Source: Actinomycetota bacterium (GTDB lineage: Bacteria; Actinomycetota; Acidimicrobiia; Acidimicrobiales; MedAcidi-G1). From it: a DNA stretch of 64,000 nt. Below the pieces are notes generated by a model. The model ran no database searches and was not told where the DNA came from. It saw only the letters and a program-made list of their open reading frames with translations. Within the stretch, counting starts at the first letter, position 1. Each line of letters opens with the position of its first letter. The stretch covers positions 17,375 to 81,374 of the forward strand of contig JAZADN010000047.1 in the NCBI GenBank assembly GCA_036123585.1, read 5' to 3'. The position numbers and the translations under genes are program-made. Shown in pieces: positions 53,099 to 61,834 of this stretch.

Positions 53099-54496
53099 AT
53101 GACAATGGCCGATGGTGCGCCGACGGGCAAGACTTGGCTGGGGAGTGACACGGCGCTGGCCCGCGCCGTCGGCCGACCCGTCAGGCACTTCCTCGGCATC
53201 GAGGCGGCCGGTGGCATCCTCCTCATGGTGGCCACCGCAGTAGCCCTCGTGTGGGCCAACTCGCCGTGGTCGGGCTCCTACCACGACCTGTGGCACACCG
53301 AGGTCCATCTGGCCGTCGGCGGCGTGGCCCTGGAACACCACGGCCACGCCCTGACCCTCCACCAACTGGTGAACGACGCCCTCATGGCCGTCTTTTTCTT
53401 CGTGGTCGGCCTGGAGATCAAGCGCGAACTGGTGGCCGGCCACCTCCGCGACCGTCGGGCCGCCATGCTGCCGGCTGCCGCCGCCATGGGCGGGATGGTC
53501 GTCCCGGCCCTCCTCTTCTTCGCCCTCAACCCGTCCGGAGACGCCTCGGCCGGGTGGGGGATCCCCATGGCCACCGACATCGCCTTCGCAGTCGGAGTGG
53601 TATCCATCCTCGGGCCACGGGTCTCCACGCCGCTCAAGGTCTTCCTGTTGTCGTTGGCCATCGTCGACGACATCGGGGCCATCCTGGTGATCGCCGTCTT
53701 CTACACCAGCGAGTTGGCCACCGAGTGGCTGGTCCTGGCCGTGGCCACCGTGTTGGCTGTCGTCATCCTGACCCGGGCCAAGGTCTGGTACACGCCGTTC
53801 TACCTACTGCTGGGCACCCTCCTCTGGTACGCAACGTTCCGCTCGGGGATCCACGCCACCATCGCCGGCGTGGCCATGGGTCTCCTCGCCCCTGCCAAGG
53901 CTCTCTTGGAGCCTGGCGAGGAGCCGCCCATCGAAGTGGGCCGGATGGACGCCCATAACCTCCGGGCGGCCAAGTTCCGTCTCAATGAGTCGGTGTCGGT
54001 GGCTGCCCGACTCGAGCACCAGCTCCACCCCGTCACGAGTTTCGTCATCATCCCGGTATTCGCTCTGGCCAACGCGGGGATCGAACTGAGTGGAGAGGCT
54101 CTGTCCGATGCCCTCACTTCTCCGATCACCCTGGGTGTGGTCCTCGGACTGGTGGTCGGCAAGGTGGTCGGCATCAGTCTGTTCACCCTTGGCGCCGTCC
54201 GTTTCGGACTCTCGGCGTTGCCTCGGGGGGCGACCGTTCGACACGTGGTCGGACTCTCAGCCATTGCCGGCATCGGCTTCACCGTGTCGCTCTTCGTGAC
54301 GGGCCTCGCCTACGACGACCTTGTTCTTCAGGACGAGGCCAAGGTGGGCATCCTGTTTGCTTCGGTGGTGGCCGCCCTGGTGGGGCTAGCCGTGCTGTCG
54401 GGTGCACACTCCGATGGGACCGAGGATCAGGAGATTGTTCCCGAGGTGGCAGCGGATCACCGTACGGACGGATCGGTCGAGGAGGCCGCCACTTGA
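53099..54496 (+). CDS. nhaA: Na+/H+ antiporter NhaA
   Basis: RBS GAGGGAGGA. FLGIEAAGGILLM, NDALMAVFFFVVGLEIKRE, and IVDDIGAI motifs. Confidence 0.9.
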   Translation: MTMADGAPTGKTWLGSDTALARAVGRPVRHFLGIEAAGGILLMVATAVALVWANSPWSGSYHDLWHTEVHLAVGGVALEHHGHALTLHQLVNDALMAVFFFVVGLEIKRELVAGHLRDRRAAMLPAAAAMGGMVVPALLFFALNPSGDASAGWGIPMATDIAFAVGVVSILGPRVSTPLKVFLLSLAIVDDIGAILVIAVFYTSELATEWLVLAVATVLAVVILTRAKVWYTPFYLLLGTLLWYATFRSGIHATIAGVAMGLLAPAKALLEPGEEPPIEVGRMDAHNLRAAKFRLNESVSVAARLEHQLHPVTSFVIIPVFALANAGIELSGEALSDALTSPITLGVVLGLVVGKVVGISLFTLGAVRFGLSALPRGATVRHVVGLSAIAGIGFTVSLFVTGLAYDDLVLQDEAKVGILFASVVAALVGLAVLSGAHSDGTEDQEIVPEVAADHRTDGSVEEAAT

Positions 54497-54566
54497 GGTC
54501 GATCGGGGTCCGGACGACGTTCCGGTGCTTGACACGGACACCCGACTTCTGCCAATGGTGGAATTT

Positions 54567-57500
54567 ATGAGCAGGGCATTGGTCATCGTTGAGTCGCCGG
54601 CCAAGGCGAAGACGATCTCGGGGTATCTCGGCGCCGGTTTCGTCGTGGAGTCGTCGATCGGGCACATCCGCGACCTCCCAATGCGGGCGTCGGACGTCCC
54701 GGCCGCCTACAAGGACCTCGACTGGGCCAAGACAGGTGTCGACGTGGACAACGGCTTCAAGCCGCTATACGTGGTCAATGCCGACAAGAAGTCCCAGATC
54801 TCGCAGTTGAAGCGCCTACTCAAGGACGCCGACGAGTTGTATCTGGCGACCGATGAGGACCGGGAGGGCGAGGCCATTGCCTGGCACCTGCTGGAGGTCC
54901 TGAACCCCAAGGTGCCGGTCCACCGGATGGTCTTCCACGAGATCACGAAGTCGGCCATCACCGAGGCCTTGGCCAACACCCGGGAGTTGGACACCCGCCT
55001 GGTCGACGCCCAAGAGACCCGACGCATCCTCGACCGCCTATACGGCTACGAACTCTCGCCGGTGCTGTGGCGGATGATCGGTGGTGGCCTCTCGGCTGGC
55101 CGGGTGCAGAGCGTGGCCACCCGCATGGTGGTTGAACGCGAGCGGGAGCGGATGGCCTTCGCCTCGGCCGACTACTGGGACCTGACCTGTCGCCTCGTTA
55201 CGGCGAGCGGCGAGGGGTTCACGGCCCGCCTCATCGAGGTGGATGGTCGGAAGGTGGCCACCGGACGCGACTTCGACGACGCGGGGCGGGCGACCGGAGA
55301 CGTCCTGGTGCTCGACGAATCGGCAGCTGGCGCGGTGCGCAGAGGCTTCGAGGGGCGTCCGGTGGTCGTCGACTCGGTGGAGCCCAAGCCATACCGGCGT
55401 CGTCCGGCGGCCCCATTCACCACGTCGACCTTCCAGCAAGAGGCAGGGCGCCGATTGCGCTTGTCGGCGTCAAGGGCCATGCACGCCGCCCAGGGTCTTT
55501 ACCAGAAGGGCTACATCACCTACATGCGGACCGACAGCACCACGCTGTCCGACACCGCGGTGCGGGCCGCTCGGGCCGAAGCAAAGCAGCGGTTCGGCGC
55601 TGACCACGTTCCCGACGCACCACGGACCTACGCCAACAAGGTGCGCAACGCCCAGGAGGCGCACGAGGCCATCCGACCGGCCGGCGACCGGTTCCGCCAC
55701 CCTGACGAGGTGCGTGGCGAGCTACCGAAGTCGGAGGCCGACGTCTACGAGATGGTGTGGCGACGAACGGTGGCCTCACAGATGAGCGATACCACCGGCG
55801 AGACGGTGGGCCTCCGCCTCTCCGGCGACCTTGCGGCCGACGCCGCGTCGGTGGGCGTTCGGGCCACGGTGGCCGCCAGTGGCACGGTGATTCACCACCA
55901 GGGCTTCCGCCGGGTCTACGAGGAGGCGACCGCCGAGGCGGCCCGAGGCGGTGGTGGGGGTACAAAGACCGACTCTGTCGCTGCAGACGACGAGGCCGAG
56001 GAGCGGGTGCTGCCAGCAGTGTCGGTCGGCGAGGCCATCGACGTAGCCGAGGTCGAGGTCGACGGGCACAGGACGAAGCCGCCCTCCCGGTACACGGAGG
56101 CCTCGTTGGTCAAGGGCCTCGAGGAGCACGGCGTGGGCCGGCCCTCCACCTACGCCTCGATCATGGAGACCATCCAGCGGAAGTACGTCTTCAAGAAGGG
56201 CAACGCCCTGGTGCCCACGCTGAGCGCCTTCGCGGTGACCACCCTGCTGGAGCGGCACTTCCCGAGGATGGTCGACTACGGCTTCACCGCCTCGATGGAG
56301 GAGGACCTGGACGAGATCGCTGCCGGCCGGGCCGAGAGCGTCCCATGGCTCGACGCCTTCTACTTCGGCTCCGACGACGACATCGGGCTGAAGGCCAAGG
56401 TCACCACCCGCCTCGGTGACATCGACCCGAAGGGCGTGAGCACTGTGGATCTCGGGGCCACCACGGACGGAGAGCCGGTGGTGGCCCGGTTCGGCAAGTT
56501 TGGGCCTTACGTGCAGGTCGGCGAACACACCCAGTCCATCCCCGACGACCTGCCCCCGGACGAGCTGTCGGTCGAGCGGGCGCTCGAATATCTGAATGCA
56601 CCGGCCGATCGGGAACTCGGTACCGACCCTGAGACGGGTTTGGTGGTCGTGGCACGGTCTGGGCGCTTCGGGCCCTACGTGTCCCTCGGCCGACCTCCGG
56701 ACCGTCCGGCCCCGTCGTCGCCGGAGGGCCGTCTCATGGCCCTGCCCCGGAACAAGAAGGAACTGAAGGTGGCGTTGGCATACCTGCGTCTGGCCGCCGG
56801 GCGCCTCGACCTGGCCGCCGCCACGGCGATCCTGAACGTGCCCAAGCGGGGGATCGGCAAGGGCGCGGTCGACGCCGTGAAGGACGCCGTGTCGACGGGC
56901 CGTTCCGTCGTCGAGGCGCTGAGGGATGCCGAGGGGCTCGGGATCAAGGGCAAGCCGTTGGCCGGCATCGGAGCGTTCCTGGCCCTCGGCGAAGAGTTGC
57001 ACGGCCTGCGCGACGAGGGCCCGGCCGCCGTGCTGGAGGCGGCGATCGAGCGCTCGGGCTACGGCGACGAACTGCGGGCCGACGAGACGGGTGCCGCCCG
57101 GTTCGAAAACCTAGAGAAACTGTCGGAGGTCGTCGGTGCCTTCGAGGATCTCGAGTCGGTGCTCGACGAGTTGGACAGCCAGGCCGGCCTCGACGAACTG
57201 CCCCGCCCCAAGACGGCGTCGCTGTTCGAGACGATGACACTGGAGCGGATCACCTTCGACGATGCCATGCAACTGCTGAGCCTTCCCCGCACCGTCGGCG
57301 TCGACCCGGCTGACGGCGCAGAGGTCACGGTGCACAACGGCCCGTACGGCCCGTACCTGAAGAAGGGGTCGGACAGCCGGAACATCGAGAAGGAGGAGCA
57401 GCTCCTCACCATCACCCTTGACGAGTGCCTGTCTCTGCTGTCCCAGCCCAAGCGCCGGGGTCGTAACACCCCGAAGCCGCCGCTGAAGGAGCTGGGGAAG

Positions 57501-57686
57501 GACCCGGAGACGGGGAAGGTGATGTTGCTAAAGGACGGTAATTGGGGCCCGTATGTGACCGATGGCGAGTACAACGCGTCGTTGCAGCGGGGCGACGCCG
57601 TCGAGGAGTTGACCGACGAGCGGGCCGCTGAACTACTGGCCGAGCGCCGTATGAAGGGCCCGGCAAAGAAGAAAGGCCGGCGCTAA
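54567..57686 (+). CDS. topA: DNA topoisomerase I with an inserted UvrD-2B-like module in the C-terminal domain
   Basis: ALVIVESPAKAKTISGYLG Toprim start, YITYMRTDS active-site Tyr, and four GxxGPY C-terminal repeats (GKFGPYV, GRFGPYV, GPYGPYL, GNWGPYV). About 157 extra residues lie between repeats 2 and 3. Confidence 0.95.
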   Translation: MSRALVIVESPAKAKTISGYLGAGFVVESSIGHIRDLPMRASDVPAAYKDLDWAKTGVDVDNGFKPLYVVNADKKSQISQLKRLLKDADELYLATDEDREGEAIAWHLLEVLNPKVPVHRMVFHEITKSAITEALANTRELDTRLVDAQETRRILDRLYGYELSPVLWRMIGGGLSAGRVQSVATRMVVERERERMAFASADYWDLTCRLVTASGEGFTARLIEVDGRKVATGRDFDDAGRATGDVLVLDESAAGAVRRGFEGRPVVVDSVEPKPYRRRPAAPFTTSTFQQEAGRRLRLSASRAMHAAQGLYQKGYITYMRTDSTTLSDTAVRAARAEAKQRFGADHVPDAPRTYANKVRNAQEAHEAIRPAGDRFRHPDEVRGELPKSEADVYEMVWRRTVASQMSDTTGETVGLRLSGDLAADAASVGVRATVAASGTVIHHQGFRRVYEEATAEAARGGGGGTKTDSVAADDEAEERVLPAVSVGEAIDVAEVEVDGHRTKPPSRYTEASLVKGLEEHGVGRPSTYASIMETIQRKYVFKKGNALVPTLSAFAVTTLLERHFPRMVDYGFTASMEEDLDEIAAGRAESVPWLDAFYFGSDDDIGLKAKVTTRLGDIDPKGVSTVDLGATTDGEPVVARFGKFGPYVQVGEHTQSIPDDLPPDELSVERALEYLNAPADRELGTDPETGLVVVARSGRFGPYVSLGRPPDRPAPSSPEGRLMALPRNKKELKVALAYLRLAAGRLDLAAATAILNVPKRGIGKGAVDAVKDAVSTGRSVVEALRDAEGLGIKGKPLAGIGAFLALGEELHGLRDEGPAAVLEAAIERSGYGDELRADETGAARFENLEKLSEVVGAFEDLESVLDELDSQAGLDELPRPKTASLFETMTLERITFDDAMQLLSLPRTVGVDPADGAEVTVHNGPYGPYLKKGSDSRNIEKEEQLLTITLDECLSLLSQPKRRGRNTPKPPLKELGKDPETGKVMLLKDGNWGPYVTDGEYNASLQRGDAVEELTDERAAELLAERRMKGPAKKKGRR

Positions 57687-57766
57687 CTGGAGTCCCGCCC
57701 GAGGCTCGGTGTCACGAGGTGTCCTACGCCCCCAAGCAGGGGGGAAGGCTCCCGTAGAATGGCCGG

Positions 57767-59233
57767 GTGACCGAGGTGAACGGACCGGCGGGCGGGCTGC
57801 CCGGGGAGGGTCCCGGCGAGGCGACCGGTGGTCGGCCAGTCCCCGGTGACGAGTTCACGCCCTTTCTTCCAGTTGAGGGGCGGCCATCGCTGAGGGTTCG
57901 GCTGTTCGGGACGCCCGCTTTCTTCCGGTTGTGGATGGCTCAGGTGGTGTCGGCCACCGGCGACTGGCTAGGCCTGCTCGCCATCTCGATCCTGGCCATC
58001 CGGGTGGGCTCGGGCAACGAGGGTGCGGCTCTCAGCCTGGTCCTGGCCGCCCGCATTGTCCCCGGCTTCTTCTTCGGCCCAGTGGCCGGCGTGCTGGTCG
58101 ACCGGTGGGACCGCAAGCGCACCATGGTCACCTGCGACGTTGGGCGGGCCGCGGTGATGGTCGTTCTGCCGTTCGTGGACACGCTCATCGGTCTGTTCAT
58201 CGCTTCGCTGGTGCTCGAGGCACTAACCATGCTGTGGGGTCCGGCCAAGGAGGCTTCGGTCCCCCACGTGGTGCCGGAGGACCAGCTGGCTACAGCCAAC
58301 TCGCTGTCGCTTGTCGCCGCCTATGGGACGTTCCCCTTGGGAGCTGGCCTGATGGCCCTATTCGGACGGCTGTCCACGGCGCTGTTTGACTCGGCGTGGG
58401 CCGACAACATCCGGCTCGACGACATGGGCCTGGCGTTTTACGCCAACGCCCTCTCGTTTCTGGTCACCGGTTGGTTGATTCTCACCCTGAACCTGCCAAA
58501 GCGCCCCCGGGCCGAGAAGGACGAGGCACGTGGCCGGCGCCTTTCGCTCGACAACCCAATGGCTGAACTCCGTGAAGGTTGGCGGTTCGCCTTCGGGAAC
58601 CCAGTGGCCCGCACCGTCAATCTCGGCCTGGCCACCGGACTGATCGGCGGCGGAATGCTGGTGCCGCTGGGCGCCATCTATGCCGACGAAGTGCTGGGTG
58701 CCGGCAAGTCGGGCTTAGGTGTGCTCATCACCGCCCTAGGCCTCGGCGTGGCGTCCGGGGTGGGCTTGATCACCTGGCGGCAGAAGCACCTCGACAAAGC
58801 CCGCATGTTCACCGTGGCGCTGACCGGCGCGGGGATCTTCCTTGCCATGGCGGCGTCGATCAGCCAGGTCCACGCCTCGACGTCGATGGTCTTCTGTATC
58901 GGGATCTGTGCCGGCGGGGTTTACGTGCTCGGCTTCACTCTCCTGCATGAGACGGTCGACGACGAGCTCCGGGGTCGGATCTTTTCCACGCTGTACCTGC
59001 TGGTCCGGGGGTGCGTCCTGCTGGCCCTGGTGGTAGGGCCGCTCATGGAGGACCTGCTGGACCGCCTGTCCAGCGTGCTGTGGGACCGCCACGTGGAGGT
59101 GTTCGGCCTGGGCGTGAATGTGCCCGGGGTTCGCCTCACCCTTTGGCTGGCCGCCCTCATCATCTTGGCCTCCGGGGCGGTGGCTGCCGGCTCGCTGCGG
59201 GCCGGACTCCGTGATCGGGAGGAGGCTTCGTGA
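57767..59233 (+). CDS. MFS transporter
   Basis: 12 to 14 hydrophobic segments. The GVLVDRWDRKR loop motif is typical of enterobactin-exporter-like MFS proteins. Confidence 0.8.
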   Translation: MTEVNGPAGGLPGEGPGEATGGRPVPGDEFTPFLPVEGRPSLRVRLFGTPAFFRLWMAQVVSATGDWLGLLAISILAIRVGSGNEGAALSLVLAARIVPGFFFGPVAGVLVDRWDRKRTMVTCDVGRAAVMVVLPFVDTLIGLFIASLVLEALTMLWGPAKEASVPHVVPEDQLATANSLSLVAAYGTFPLGAGLMALFGRLSTALFDSAWADNIRLDDMGLAFYANALSFLVTGWLILTLNLPKRPRAEKDEARGRRLSLDNPMAELREGWRFAFGNPVARTVNLGLATGLIGGGMLVPLGAIYADEVLGAGKSGLGVLITALGLGVASGVGLITWRQKHLDKARMFTVALTGAGIFLAMAASISQVHASTSMVFCIGICAGGVYVLGFTLLHETVDDELRGRIFSTLYLLVRGCVLLALVVGPLMEDLLDRLSSVLWDRHVEVFGLGVNVPGVRLTLWLAALIILASGAVAAGSLRAGLRDREEAS

Positions 59234-59838
59234 CCGGACGGTTCATTGCCGTGGAGGGGGCCGACGGGACCGGAAAGTCCACCCAGGCCCGCCTGCTTGC
59301 CGAGCACCTCGATGCGGTCTTCACCCGGGAACCGGGGGGTACGCCGCTGGGTGAGCGCATACGCGCCCTGGTGCTGGACCCCGACGGCGACGGTCCGGTG
59401 GACCGGGCCGAGGCGCTGCTCATGGCGGCGGCCCGGGCCCAGCACGTGGAGCAGGTCGTGGCTCCGGCGCTGGCTGCTGGGCGTGATGTCGTATCGGATC
59501 GATTTGTGGCGTCGTCCATCGCTTACCAGGGACACGGAAGGGGCTTAGGCGCCAAGGAGGTGACCGAGGTCAACCGGTTCGCCACCGATGGCCTACGGCC
59601 CGACCTGGTGGTACTCGTGGTGCTGGAAGCTCCCCTGGCCGCCGATCGGCTGGGCGACGATGGGGACCGTGACCGGATCGAGCGGGCCGGCGATGATCTC
59701 CAGGCAGTGGTCGTGGACGCCTACCGGGGTATGGCTGTTGCCGACCCGGACCGCTGGGTGGTGGTCGATGGTTCGGGCTCTATCGAGGAGGTGGCGGCAC
59801 GGGTGGCCGCTGCCGTAGATGCCCGACTGGGAGCCTGA
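59230..59838 (+). CDS. tmk: dTMP (thymidylate) kinase
   Basis: FIAVEGADGTGKST P-loop. Confidence 0.9.
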   Translation: MTGRFIAVEGADGTGKSTQARLLAEHLDAVFTREPGGTPLGERIRALVLDPDGDGPVDRAEALLMAAARAQHVEQVVAPALAAGRDVVSDRFVASSIAYQGHGRGLGAKEVTEVNRFATDGLRPDLVVLVVLEAPLAADRLGDDGDRDRIERAGDDLQAVVVDAYRGMAVADPDRWVVVDGSGSIEEVAARVAAAVDARLGA

Positions 59839-60971
59839 TGGATGGGACCGGGTCCAGCCCAGCCTGCGTGGCCACCGAGGGTGCCCTCCTCGACGAGGAG
59901 GGACTATGGGCGGGTGTCGCCGGTCAGCCGGAGGCCGTAGCCCTGCTGCGTGCCGCGGTCGATGATCCGGTTCACGCCTACCTTCTGGTCGGTCCGACTG
60001 GAGCCGGTCGGGAACAGGTGGCCCGAGCGTTCGCCGGTTCGCTCTTCGCCGACGGCGTCGAAGATCCCCTAGCGGCCGGCCGCCATCGCTCCCTGGCCGC
60101 CGCGGGCCGCCATCCGGACCTGATGGTGGTCGAGCCGGAGGGACGCGCCCTGCTGGTCGCCGACGCCGAACGCATCACCGTGGCCGCTTGGCGCTCGCCG
60201 GTGGAGGTCAACCGGAAAGTCATCGTGGTCGATCGGTTCAACACCGCCGAGCCTGCCGCCGCGGCCAGCCTGCTCAAGACCATCGAGGAGCCGCCGGCCA
60301 GCGCGGTGTTCCTGCTCCTGACCGACGAGGTGCCGGAGGAGCACGTGACGGTGGCGTCGCGCTGCGTCCGGGTCGACGTCGGGCCCATTCCCGCCGGAGT
60401 GCTGGCCGACCTGCTGGAGGCCGAAGGGGTGGACGCCGGTCGGGCAGTCGACGTGGCCGAGGCGGCCGCGGGCAGTCTGGACCGGGCCCGCCTGCTGGCT
60501 AACGACCCGGCCGTGGTGGCTCGGCGAGACGCCTGGCGTTCGGTGCCCGACCGGCTCGATGGGTCCGGTGCGGCGGTGGCTGTCCTGGTCGGTGAACTGC
60601 GGGGCCTGATCGACGACGCCCAGATGCCGCTGGAGGCCCACCACCAGCGCGAGCTCGAGGAGCTGGCCGAGCGGGAGGAAGTGGTCGGGACCCGGGGGTC
60701 TGGCCGCCGCGAGCTGGCAGAGCGCCAACGCCGAGAGGTGCGTCGCCACCGCGACGATGAGCTCCGATTCGGCCTGGCCACCCTCAGCCGGGCCTATCTG
60801 GCCCGTGCCCAGCAGGGTGGTGGTAACGGAGATGCCGAGGATCCCGAGCGGCTGCTGGCGGCGACGACCCGCATCACCGAGGCCACCGGCGAGCTGGTCC
60901 GCAACCCGAACGAATCCCTGCTGCTCCAGGCTCTGCTCCTGGATCTGCCAGTTGGTACCGACCACAGTTGA
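59838..60971 (+). CDS. holB: DNA polymerase III subunit delta'
   Basis: HAYLLVGPTGAGRE AAA+ P-loop-like motif and LLKTIEEPP. Follows tmk as in many bacteria. Confidence 0.85.
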   Translation: MDGTGSSPACVATEGALLDEEGLWAGVAGQPEAVALLRAAVDDPVHAYLLVGPTGAGREQVARAFAGSLFADGVEDPLAAGRHRSLAAAGRHPDLMVVEPEGRALLVADAERITVAAWRSPVEVNRKVIVVDRFNTAEPAAAASLLKTIEEPPASAVFLLLTDEVPEEHVTVASRCVRVDVGPIPAGVLADLLEAEGVDAGRAVDVAEAAAGSLDRARLLANDPAVVARRDAWRSVPDRLDGSGAAVAVLVGELRGLIDDAQMPLEAHHQRELEELAEREEVVGTRGSGRRELAERQRREVRRHRDDELRFGLATLSRAYLARAQQGGGNGDAEDPERLLAATTRITEATGELVRNPNESLLLQALLLDLPVGTDHS

Positions 60972-61069: not shown

Positions 61070-61834
61070 GTGATCGACCGGGACCGCCACCCGATCGAGG
61101 ACTCCGGCCACCGGAGGCGGTGCCGGGAGTCTCTCGACGCGGATGGGGCCCTGGTACTAGACGGCTTCTTCACCGCTGAGGCCGTCGCCCGGGTGGTGGC
61201 CGACTCCGCTTCCCGCCAGGACGAAGCCTTCTACGCCGACTCCACCCACAACGTGTATCTGACCGCCCCCGACCCGGACCTCGCCCACGGCCACCCGTTC
61301 AACCGGCAGGTGGCGTCCAGCAAGGGTCTGCTGGCCGACGACCAGGTGCCGGCCGACTCGCCACTTCGGACCGTCTACGACGACCCCGCCTTCCGGGACT
61401 TCCTTTGCGCTGTGCTGGGCATCGACGCCATCCACCCCTACGCCGACGACCTGTCGTCGATCAACGTGCACTTCGCCCCGGCGGGACGGGAGTTGGGCTG
61501 GCACTTCGACAACTCGTCATTCGCCGTCACCATGCTGCTTCAGGCCCCGGAGGGCGGTGGTCGTTTCGAGTACGTCCCCGCAGCCCGCCAATTGGAAACC
61601 GGTGACATGGGCTACGAGGTGGTCGATGCCGTCCTCGACGGTGCGCACCCCGTCAAAACTCTGGAGTTCGAGCCCGGGTCGCTGGTCCTCTTCCGGGGTC
61701 GTGACGCTCTGCACCGTGTGACACCCACCGAAGGGTCGGTGACCCGCCTGCTGGTGGTGTTCGCCTTCAACGACCAGCCTGGCGTAGGCCTGTCAGACTC
61801 AGCACTGCGAACCTTCTACGGCCGCACGGACTGA
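61070..61834 (+). CDS. Fe(II)/2-oxoglutarate-dependent oxygenase-like protein
   Basis: Candidate facial triad H-x-D (GWHFDN) plus distal His (DALHRV). Double-stranded beta-helix-like length. Confidence 0.5.
   Translation: MIDRDRHPIEDSGHRRRCRESLDADGALVLDGFFTAEAVARVVADSASRQDEAFYADSTHNVYLTAPDPDLAHGHPFNRQVASSKGLLADDQVPADSPLRTVYDDPAFRDFLCAVLGIDAIHPYADDLSSINVHFAPAGRELGWHFDNSSFAVTMLLQAPEGGGRFEYVPAARQLETGDMGYEVVDAVLDGAHPVKTLEFEPGSLVLFRGRDALHRVTPTEGSVTRLLVVFAFNDQPGVGLSDSALRTFYGRTD

Follow-up and report, generated by a model that had tools for sequence, protein, structure and literature searches.

A UvrD/PcrA-type 2B subdomain in the C-terminal region of DNA topoisomerase I of uncultured Acidimicrobiia

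Results

A helicase 2B subdomain without its motor in TopA

The DNA analyzed here, referred to as the window, is a stretch of 64,000 nucleotides from contig JAZADN010000047.1 of an actinomycetotal bacterium of the MedAcidi-G1 lineage. A single plus-strand open reading frame (ORF) at 54402-57686 codes for TopA, the type I DNA topoisomerase, and an earlier note made from the sequence alone had proposed that the C-terminal region of this protein contains a module resembling the 2B subdomain of UvrD/PcrA. Profile searches (E values down to 7.5e-29) and the predicted fold agree with this proposal. It is near-certain, with respect to both identity and architecture, that the insert is a homologue of the complete 2B subdomain of PcrA, UvrD, and Rep and that it is present in TopA without the helicase motor. 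The domain transplant, found in an essential enzyme of abundant bacteria, is both surprising and robust.

In profile comparisons, the likeness to 2B was highly significant. A 174-amino-acid (aa) stretch covering the insert matched the PcrA model of NCBIfam over positions 381-525 (E = 1.7e-17), followed by the UvrD (5.6e-12) and Rep (1.2e-6) models, and it matched PcrA chain 1PJR in the Protein Data Bank (PDB) over residues 388-528 with an E value of about 5e-14. Lower E values were obtained with a profile of 32 non-redundant inserts (A2) run against the PDB: PcrA was matched at 388-527 (E = 7.5e-29), Deinococcus radiodurans UvrD at 8e-26, Mycobacterium tuberculosis UvrD1 at 410-548 (6e-25), Escherichia coli UvrD at 384-520 (3e-22), and Rep at 379-512 (1e-12). 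The Pfam UvrD_C model gave 20.4 bits for the window protein, below its curated cut-off of 25.6 and over profile positions 109-153 only; in 23 of the 32 inserts it matched with an E value of 0.01 or lower.

Structure prediction gave the same result. The AlphaFold2 (AF2) model of the insert is all-helical, with ten helices and a predicted local distance difference test (pLDDT) score of 93.3. When this model was compared with the PDB using Foldseek, the best 36 matches were all superfamily 1A (SF1A) helicases (UvrD, PcrA, Rep, AddA, and AdnB), with TM-scores normalised to the query of 0.72 to 0.74 (3LFU, 0.72; 2PJR, 0.74).

The earlier note had also stated that no ATPase motifs accompany the module, and this holds. 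Pfam returned no PF00580, AAA_19, or UvrD_C_2 match, and hence no RecA-like 1A/2A motor, in the window TopA; without these domains, which were looked for, the protein is not a helicase. In helicases, a hallmark of 2B is its embedding in subdomain 2A via two hinge segments; here that embedding is absent, and 2B is instead housed by a Topo_C_Rpt domain, in its β3-β4 loop. Pieces of 2A carried along with 2B were considered, as tblastn alignments ran ~100 aa into repeat 3 and 35 aa upstream of the insert; the flanks alone, however, gave E > 0.4 against the same helicases, and the alignments were judged to be over-extended. An intein or mobile in-frame insertion was rejected, given that Pfam found no Hint or intein match in TopA, the distribution is clade-wide, and the locus is syntenic. 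Reverse gyrase was likewise rejected: TIGR01054 covers the topoisomerase part only (model positions 867-1166), with 262 bits versus a cut-off of 472.

Extent and position of the insertion

A stretch of 170 residues (aa 709-878, nt 56691-57200) separates GRFGPYVSLG from PRPKTASLF. The module had previously been placed at 56730-57200 with about 157 residues; its 3' end stood, and its 5' side proved slightly short. Eight of 23 aligned homologues are without this stretch and have a short acidic loop instead, e.g., SLGEVT-DDGPRPKTASLF. Across insert-less relatives this loop measures ~6 to 10 residues, and with ~6 residues in the closest ones the net insertion is ~164 aa. The insertion and the two halves of its host repeat are laid out as follows.

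56610-56690, plus strand: N-terminal part of repeat 2 (D6), β1-β3, with the single-stranded DNA (ssDNA)-binding G-R-F-G-P-Y turn and strand (AF2 strands 65-69, 76-82, and 85-90, in model residues)
56691-56750, plus strand: N-linker RPPDRPAPSSPEGRLMALPR, 20 residues, proline-rich, net basic, only in insert-bearing TopAs
56751-57200, plus strand: 2B-subdomain module, aa 729-878, all-helical, homologous to PcrA 388-~540 and UvrD 384-~530
56841-56864, plus strand: GIG (helix-loop-helix) loop P-K-R-G-I-G-K-G, insert residues 51-58
57201-57290, plus strand: C-terminal part of repeat 2 (D6), with PRPK, β4 (TASL), and closing helix ITFDDAMQLLSLPR (AF2 strand 265-268, helix 280-287)

The N-linker lies outside every helicase alignment, all of which begin at insert residue 21. 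Its residues R1, P3, L15, and P19 are at least 90% conserved; its mean charge is +2.3, and its ratio of nonsynonymous to synonymous substitution rates (dN/dS) is 0 to 0.32.

In an AF2 model of the C-terminal region (aa 618-1039; pLDDT 86.8), four Topo_C_Rpt domains are seen, all built from a helix and four strands. The second of them begins with strands β1 to β3 (to PYVSLG), continues with the ten 2B helices, and ends with β4 (TASL) and the closing helix ITFDDAMQLLSL. According to this model, the module sits in the β3-β4 hairpin loop within repeat 2 (D6) and not between repeats as the earlier note had supposed; the PKTASLF…LSLPR segment, which had been taken to precede repeat 3, is modeled as two elements of repeat 2, β4 and the C-terminal helix. 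In fold, the model is most similar to M. smegmatis TopA (6PCM); UvrD, PcrA, and Rep come next. Residues S885, L886, and F887 and residues L903 to R908 in the C-terminal part of the repeat are invariant, insert present or absent.

On the other side of the insertion, FGPYVSLGR is invariant among insert-bearing homologues, and the D6 G-R-F-G-P-Y residues are kept. In mycobacterial TopA, D6 and D7 bind T-strand ssDNA via R and F/Y of the β2-β3 turn and an aromatic residue of β3 (PMC7192597). These residues are invariant here, so the ssDNA-binding site is intact and has the module as its direct neighbour. In Rep, 2B can be replaced by three glycines (PMC6412110); its two ends must therefore lie next to each other, which suits a domain dropped into a hairpin loop.

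Several further features of the insert region were observed. The G+C content of the insert DNA (window 56650-57100) is 0.72 to 0.74 versus 0.60 to 0.70 elsewhere in topA, probably reflecting a composition rich in Ala, Gly, Leu, and Arg. Members of the P0081 clade have an extra 12-residue insertion, STTKDGVLSGQG, inside the grafted 2B, where it separates the ELG(I/V) loop from the next helix (alignment A1 columns ~835-846). The P0144 cluster (TopAs of 1089 to 1092 aa from Acidimicrobiaceae genomes assembled from metagenomes, e.g., MBB32324.1) is a divergent insert-bearing lineage with 33 to 35% identity in the insert and is ~50 residues longer than the window protein.

Residues kept and dropped in the grafted 2B

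Conservation was compared between 23 TopA inserts and 123 helicase 2B domains, with positions numbered along the insert.

Conserved in both, helical core: E24, A30, Y31, L32, D40, A66, A76, F96, G123, Y124, R137, N140, L141, L144
Conserved in both, GIG loop: P51, R53, G54, G56
Helicases only: D27 (98%; Asp of the EIKD motif), N37-P38, E139, E143
Conserved only in TopA inserts: V27, K57, L97, V114, E142, E160, D162, and the terminal P171 and P173

Position 27 is V in 87% of inserts and D in helicases. N37-P38 and E143, which are 84 to 98% conserved in the helicases, vary among the TopA inserts. A plausible role for the helicase-only positions is contact with the motor domains, which TopA does not have.

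Within the GIG loop, P51, R53, and G54 are at least 96% conserved in TopA inserts and in helicases alike. The first glycine is present in 81 of 82 insert-bearing clusters; the third position is G in 40 of the 82 and otherwise S or A, the window protein having the canonical PKRGIGKG. K57, directly after the GIG loop, is Lys in 83% of inserts, the helicases having mostly Asp there. In D. radiodurans UvrD, mutation G424T of the first glycine cuts DNA binding 3- to 4-fold, and mutation G426T at the third position has no effect (PMC3797037). The pattern among the inserts, in which the first Gly is kept and only the third position varies, matches these results.

Distribution, locus, and selection

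A survey of related TopA proteins, which the earlier note had suggested, found the insert in 82 of the 120 closest TopA clusters, at 36 to 100% identity to the window insert. In a scan of one genome per species (GTDB), with the insert alignment plus the invariant repeat 2 motif FGPYVSLGR as the probe (A3), the insert was present in 36 species representatives, always at the same site; all are metagenome-assembled genomes (MAGs) or single-cell genomes (SAGs) of Acidimicrobiales/Acidimicrobiia. Many of these genomes are marine by their record titles (MedAcidi-G1, ALOHA 'Microtrichales', and ETNP), and Tara is among the sources of matching protein clusters. Single insert-bearing sequences occur on up to 258 contigs (NCBI, JGI, ENA, Logan, and Tara), every one annotated as a plain type I topoisomerase, and the sources include SAGs and one long-read MAG, LRMED-036 (JBJLAO01; locus L035, 760-kb contig).

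The gene order nhaA-topA-MFS-tmk-holB (MFS, major facilitator superfamily gene) is common to the window (53102-60968) and to all 36 insert-bearing loci examined (L001-L036). This conservation identifies the insert-bearing topA as an orthologous housekeeping gene; the copy in the window comes from an uncultured bacterium of the class Acidimicrobiia.

Selection was evaluated by the Nei-Gojobori method in 12 genome pairs. The dN/dS ranges were 0.09 to 0.41 for the insert, 0.03 to 0.18 for the catalytic core, and 0.02 to 0.13 for the C-terminal repeats. The insert is under purifying selection that is about 2 to 3 times more relaxed than in the rest of TopA.

These data bear on whether the architecture could be an artefact, either of a chimeric topA-helicase assembly or of a chance likeness between a helical linker and 2B. 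The window does come from a metagenome-type assembly, and a related database protein, P0045, appears to be a chimera of two TopA lineages; yet identical in-frame junctions recur in 36 species-level genomes and hundreds of independent contigs, SAGs and the long-read MAG among them, the D6 fold closes around the insert, purifying selection acts on it, and E values reach 1e-28 with TM-scores of 0.72 to 0.74, which leaves an artefact exceedingly improbable. Assembly chimerism in particular is excluded by the occurrence of the insert across genomes and projects, at one site and in a syntenic locus.

Origin, age, and probable loss of the module

In a neighbour-joining tree of the TopA core, all insert-bearing sequences were separated from 13 insert-less outgroup TopAs by a split with 100% bootstrap support. 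A tree built from 146 2B domains united the TopA inserts in one group, with 27 of 50 bootstraps. The inserts share one insertion site and one unique linker, and a single gain is the simplest history. Identity among the inserts averages 39%, with a minimum of 18%, and identity between inserts and the nearest helicases is ~37%. The inserts have diverged from each other as much as from the nearest helicases, indicating that the gain is ancient. The insertion looks to have happened once, long ago, and to be a vertically inherited trait of the lineage that is not peculiar to the window genome.

The nearest helicase 2B domains are those of PcrA/UvrD proteins, at 37 to 47% identity, two of which have a C-terminal Tudor domain; the 2B subdomains of Bacillus stearothermophilus PcrA and M. 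tuberculosis UvrD1 share about 30% identity with the insert. The donor was probably an actinobacterial PcrA/UvrD1-like gene, the one basis for this being the sequence of helicase P0125, which reads as high-GC and actinobacterial-like. No PcrA/UvrD gene was found inside the window or within the ±4-kb loci. The six helicases nearest to the insert (P0136, P0192, P0175, P0143, P0127, and P0125) have Hint/intein insertions between the N-terminal helicase domain and UvrD_C, and the C terminus of P0125 looks frameshifted.

The 100% split places an insert-less clade, represented by P0062 (864 aa; locus L037), together with the insert-bearing TopAs, where its precise placement has bootstraps below 30. 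A first tree had made this clade the sister of the insert-bearing P0045 with 100% support. P0045, encoded on a 4.7-kb ENA contig, is 92 to 98% identical to the P0062 clade over its N-terminal ~500 aa and 93 to 97% identical to the insert-bearing P0023/P0044 over its C-terminal half; it reads as a chimeric or recombinant TopA from two lineages, and once it was removed the support was gone. Locus L037 comprises the insert-less TopA gene (1-2496) and an MFS fragment (2552-2992) in the same nhaA-topA-MFS context. The MFS fragment is closest to its counterpart in the window's own subclade, at 80 to 82% versus 66 to 75% for the other insert-bearing subclades. The tree together with the neighbouring MFS gene makes secondary loss of the 2B module in the P0062/L037 lineage probable, not proven.

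The topA gene and its domains

The remaining parts of the gene are those of an ordinary topA.

54567-57686, plus strand: topA coding sequence, 1039 aa plus stop; alternative ATG at 54555; ORF open from 54402
54567-56366, plus strand: catalytic N-terminal domains D1-D4, Toprim with DEDREGE and Topoisom_bac with the TYMRTDS tyrosine
56442-56594, plus strand: Topo_C_Rpt repeat 1 (D5), GKFGPY, four β-strands and a helix, PF13368 (AF2 strands 9-40, helix 52-59)
57291-57443, plus strand: Topo_C_Rpt repeat 3 (D7), GPYGPY, PF13368 (AF2 strands 291-322, helices 328-342)
57486-57683, plus strand: Topo_C_Rpt repeat 4 (D8) and short Lys/Arg tail, GNWGPY (AF2 strands 357-388, helix 400-413; best PF13368 stretch aa 979-1034)

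The likely, conserved TopA start is MSRALVIVESPAK at 54567; P0001, a database protein identical to the window TopA, has its annotated start at an ATG 4 codons upstream. The TIGR01051 topA_bact equivalog of NCBIfam gave 742 bits against a cut-off of 456, and Pfam returned Toprim, Topoisom_bac, and Toprim_C_rpt matches, with PF01751 (Toprim) at aa 5-126 (E = 2.3e-21) and PF01131 (Topoisom_bac) at aa 141-592 (E = 3.5e-104). Across 23 homologues, the acidic metal-binding cluster D96-E97-D98-R-E-G-E shows no variation, and Y319-M-R-T-D, which includes the catalytic Y319 of TYMRTDS, is invariant. The four GxxGPY repeats that had been read from the sequence were all found, as GKFGPY at 56493, GRFGPY at 56661, GPYGPY at 57336, and GNWGPY at 57537. 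PF13368 scored 206.6 bits, in five stretches because repeat 2 is split. The window protein is a bacterial TopA of the actinobacterial Topo_C_Rpt class, and its intact catalytic motifs and conserved housekeeping locus suggest that it relaxes negative supercoils.

A short Lys/Arg tail (window 57600-57683; alignment A1 columns 1090-1164) is found in insert-bearing TopAs and in the P0062 clade; insert-less outgroup TopAs have lysine-rich tails of up to ~60 residues. Upstream of the nhaA-topA-MFS-tmk-holB block, the window contains genes for NAD synthase and a HAD hydrolase, and just 3' of holB lies a plus-strand ORF (61070-61831) with matches to the HalD/WelO5-type halogenase family (E = 2e-17).

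Discussion

What the grafted 2B may do

We tentatively favor a role, a little short of probable, in which the grafted 2B contacts duplex DNA or a single-strand/double-strand (ss/ds) junction beside the ssDNA-binding D6 and D7; the proposal is drawn by analogy with helicases. D6, with its ssDNA-binding G-R-F-G-P-Y kept, would still hold the passing (T) strand as in mycobacterial TopA, and the tethered 2B would touch the duplex backbone flanking the unwound bubble through the GIG loop P-x-R-G-[IV]-[GSA]-K. The outcome would be an additional swivelling anchor on duplex DNA, which, on underwound DNA, may help in recognising or holding the ss/ds junction and may tune substrate capture or processivity. 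When UvrD, PcrA, and UvrD1 are complexed as monomers, their GIG loop contacts duplex DNA adjacent to the ss/ds junction (PMC11912403). Duplex contact is favored because most of the DNA-contact loop is kept, K57 has been gained, and helicase-only residues have been dropped; the loss of the latter is what would be expected if those residues contacted the missing motor domains.

Several points weigh against this proposal. First, in helicases the contact between 2B and the duplex is now seen as regulatory or inhibitory and non-essential, competing with 2B-2B dimerisation (PMC11912403, PMC6412110). Second, the full G-x-G is missing in about half of the clusters, and one clade also swaps the Arg (GSGIAKG). 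Third, the module is acidic and no more basic than helicase 2B (mean net charge, −7.6 for inserts versus −7.7 for helicase 2B domains); with charges so alike, charge cannot discriminate between DNA and protein binding. Fourth, the AF2 model of the C-terminal region has a predicted TM-score of 0.57, leaving the orientation of 2B relative to the repeats undefined. Fifth, the P0062/L037 lineage apparently manages without the module.

Protein docking is a possible, if somewhat unlikely, alternative. The module would use the 2B-2B dimer interface to pair either with the cell's PcrA/UvrD, possibly relieving autoinhibition, or with a second TopA as a homodimer. The M. tuberculosis UvrD1 dimer is held by 2B-2B contacts and E. 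coli UvrD has the same interface (PMC11912403), Rep without 2B fails to dimerise (PMC6412110), and the insert is closest, at 37 to 47% identity, to 2B of the actinobacterial PcrA/UvrD1 type. The loop matching UvrD1 K474-N479 (consensus ELGVTG) is moderately conserved in the inserts and the nearest helicases, an acidic module suits protein contacts as well as DNA contacts, and the repeated pairing of type IA topoisomerases with helicases makes docking attractive. The face of 2B that otherwise contacts the duplex is, in the active UvrD1 dimer, taken up by a 2B-2B interface with C451 and the helix after it at its centre (PMC11912403). However, the helix after the GIG loop, which is the core of that interface (UvrD1 C451-T459, insert residues 62-69), is poorly conserved among the inserts, the central C451 is Ala62 in the window protein, and the most conserved surface element is the DNA-contact loop, with a Lys gained.

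A narrower form of docking, which we consider distinctly unlikely, is that 2B serves as a handle for helicase recruitment: a heterodimer with PcrA/UvrD would physically link the only type IA topoisomerase with an SF1A helicase, which would be activated through sequestration of its autoinhibitory 2B. Were this true, bacteria would have an SF1-based equivalent of RecQ-Top3 or reverse gyrase, built via a domain 'decoy'.

Rather doubtful, too, is a module that acts within TopA itself, folding onto the basic C-terminal repeats and tail or onto D1-D4 and gating T-strand binding, or one that is largely a passive passenger, a tolerated decoration. Its net charge of about −8 beside basic repeats and a Lys/Arg tail would fit the former, as would the primary function of helicase 2B as an autoinhibitory switch (PMC6412110, PMC11912403); the more relaxed selection on the insert and the one nested lineage without the module speak for this group of explanations as well. 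A mere passenger would be expected to decay or shrink, yet full length is kept with few indels across TopA lineages whose cores share only 57 to 58% identity, dN/dS stays well under 1 in each of the 12 pairs, and the hallmark motifs as well as the TopA-specific V27, K57, E142, E160, and D162 are conserved.

Comparison with known proteins

The window TopA resembles mycobacterial-type TopA (6PCM) in its Toprim and Topoisom_bac core, its four GxxGPY repeats made of a four-stranded sheet and a helix, its ssDNA-stacking residues R, F/Y, and Y, its short basic tail, and its topA-tmk-holB neighbourhood; it differs in that repeat 2 (D6) is split by the 170-residue insertion in the β3-β4 loop. Compared to 2B of SF1A helicases (UvrD, PcrA, and Rep; PDB 2IS6, 3LFU, 1PJR, 9DCI, and 1UAA), the insert comprises nearly the whole subdomain, with the same all-helical fold, a similar net charge, and the motifs E..A(Y)L, PxRG(I/V)G (its last Gly in 40 of 82 clusters), SGY, and R.xNLxxL. 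Unlike helicase 2B, it is not placed in a 2A RecA-like domain, has no ATPase motor, does not conserve D27, N37-P38, or E143, and adds the Lys after the GIG loop, the Pro-rich N-linker of 20 residues, and a C-terminal helix that is acidic and ends in PxPK.

Partnerships of a helicase with a type IA topoisomerase are known from reverse gyrase and from RecQ/Sgs1/BLM with Top3, which involve complete ATP-binding SF2 motor domains. Those systems and the window TopA alike join a type IA topoisomerase with helicase-derived protein material; here, however, only a non-catalytic SF1A regulatory subdomain is present, from which no ATP-driven activity can be inferred. The chlamydial TopA-SWIB fusion (NCBIfam NF004966) sets a precedent for a bacterial TopA that has acquired, toward its C terminus, an additional DNA- or chromatin-related domain restricted to one lineage, but it is an end-to-end fusion of an unrelated domain, whereas in the window TopA a helicase-derived domain lies inside a repeat.

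The earlier note knew of no description of the architecture. None emerged from literature searches that combined topoisomerase I with 2B, UvrD, or insertion or that addressed Acidimicrobiia signatures or TopA C-terminal motifs: a survey of microbial type IA C-terminal motifs is free of the words 'UvrD', 'helicase', and 'Acidimicrobi' (PMC9369019), a paper on molecular signatures of Acidimicrobiia does not use the phrase 'topoisomerase I' (PMC5962788), and the combined searches brought up unrelated papers only. Automated annotation, in turn, already records a weak UvrD_C match in a few insert-bearing proteins, all of which are still called topoisomerase I. When 1.84 billion representative proteins were searched exhaustively with the insert profile, 10,902 matches were obtained, of which the best 150 were looked at. 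Six of these 150 cover the TopA-specific part of the insert, five in full, including the N-linker (P0121, P0122, P0081, P0123, and P0144), and P0176 over the C-terminal two-thirds; P0081 is a full-length TopA, P0122, P0123, and P0144 have Pfam TopA domains, and the flanks of P0121 and P0176 match TopA repeats. The remainder of the 150 match the 2B-homologous part only, and the seven that were scanned with Pfam are all PcrA/UvrD helicases, six with inteins. As far as could be seen among the best 150 of the 10,902 matches, this is the first 2B outside helicases.

Implications

2B is the central regulatory element of UvrD-family helicases, and its occurrence in TopA amounts to a natural isolation experiment in which the module was parted from the motor and long kept; the residues retained and dropped bear on the debate over 2B in DNA contact, dimerisation, and autoinhibition. 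The finding also indicates that Topo_C_Rpt domains tolerate insertion of a whole domain at the β3-β4 loop. TopA and a version lacking the module, which would mimic P0062 as it occurs in nature, offer an easy pair of constructs bearing on C-terminal control of substrate capture and processivity. For the abundant marine Acidimicrobiia, the insert is a new accessory element in their essential TopA and a clean phylogenetic marker for the clade.

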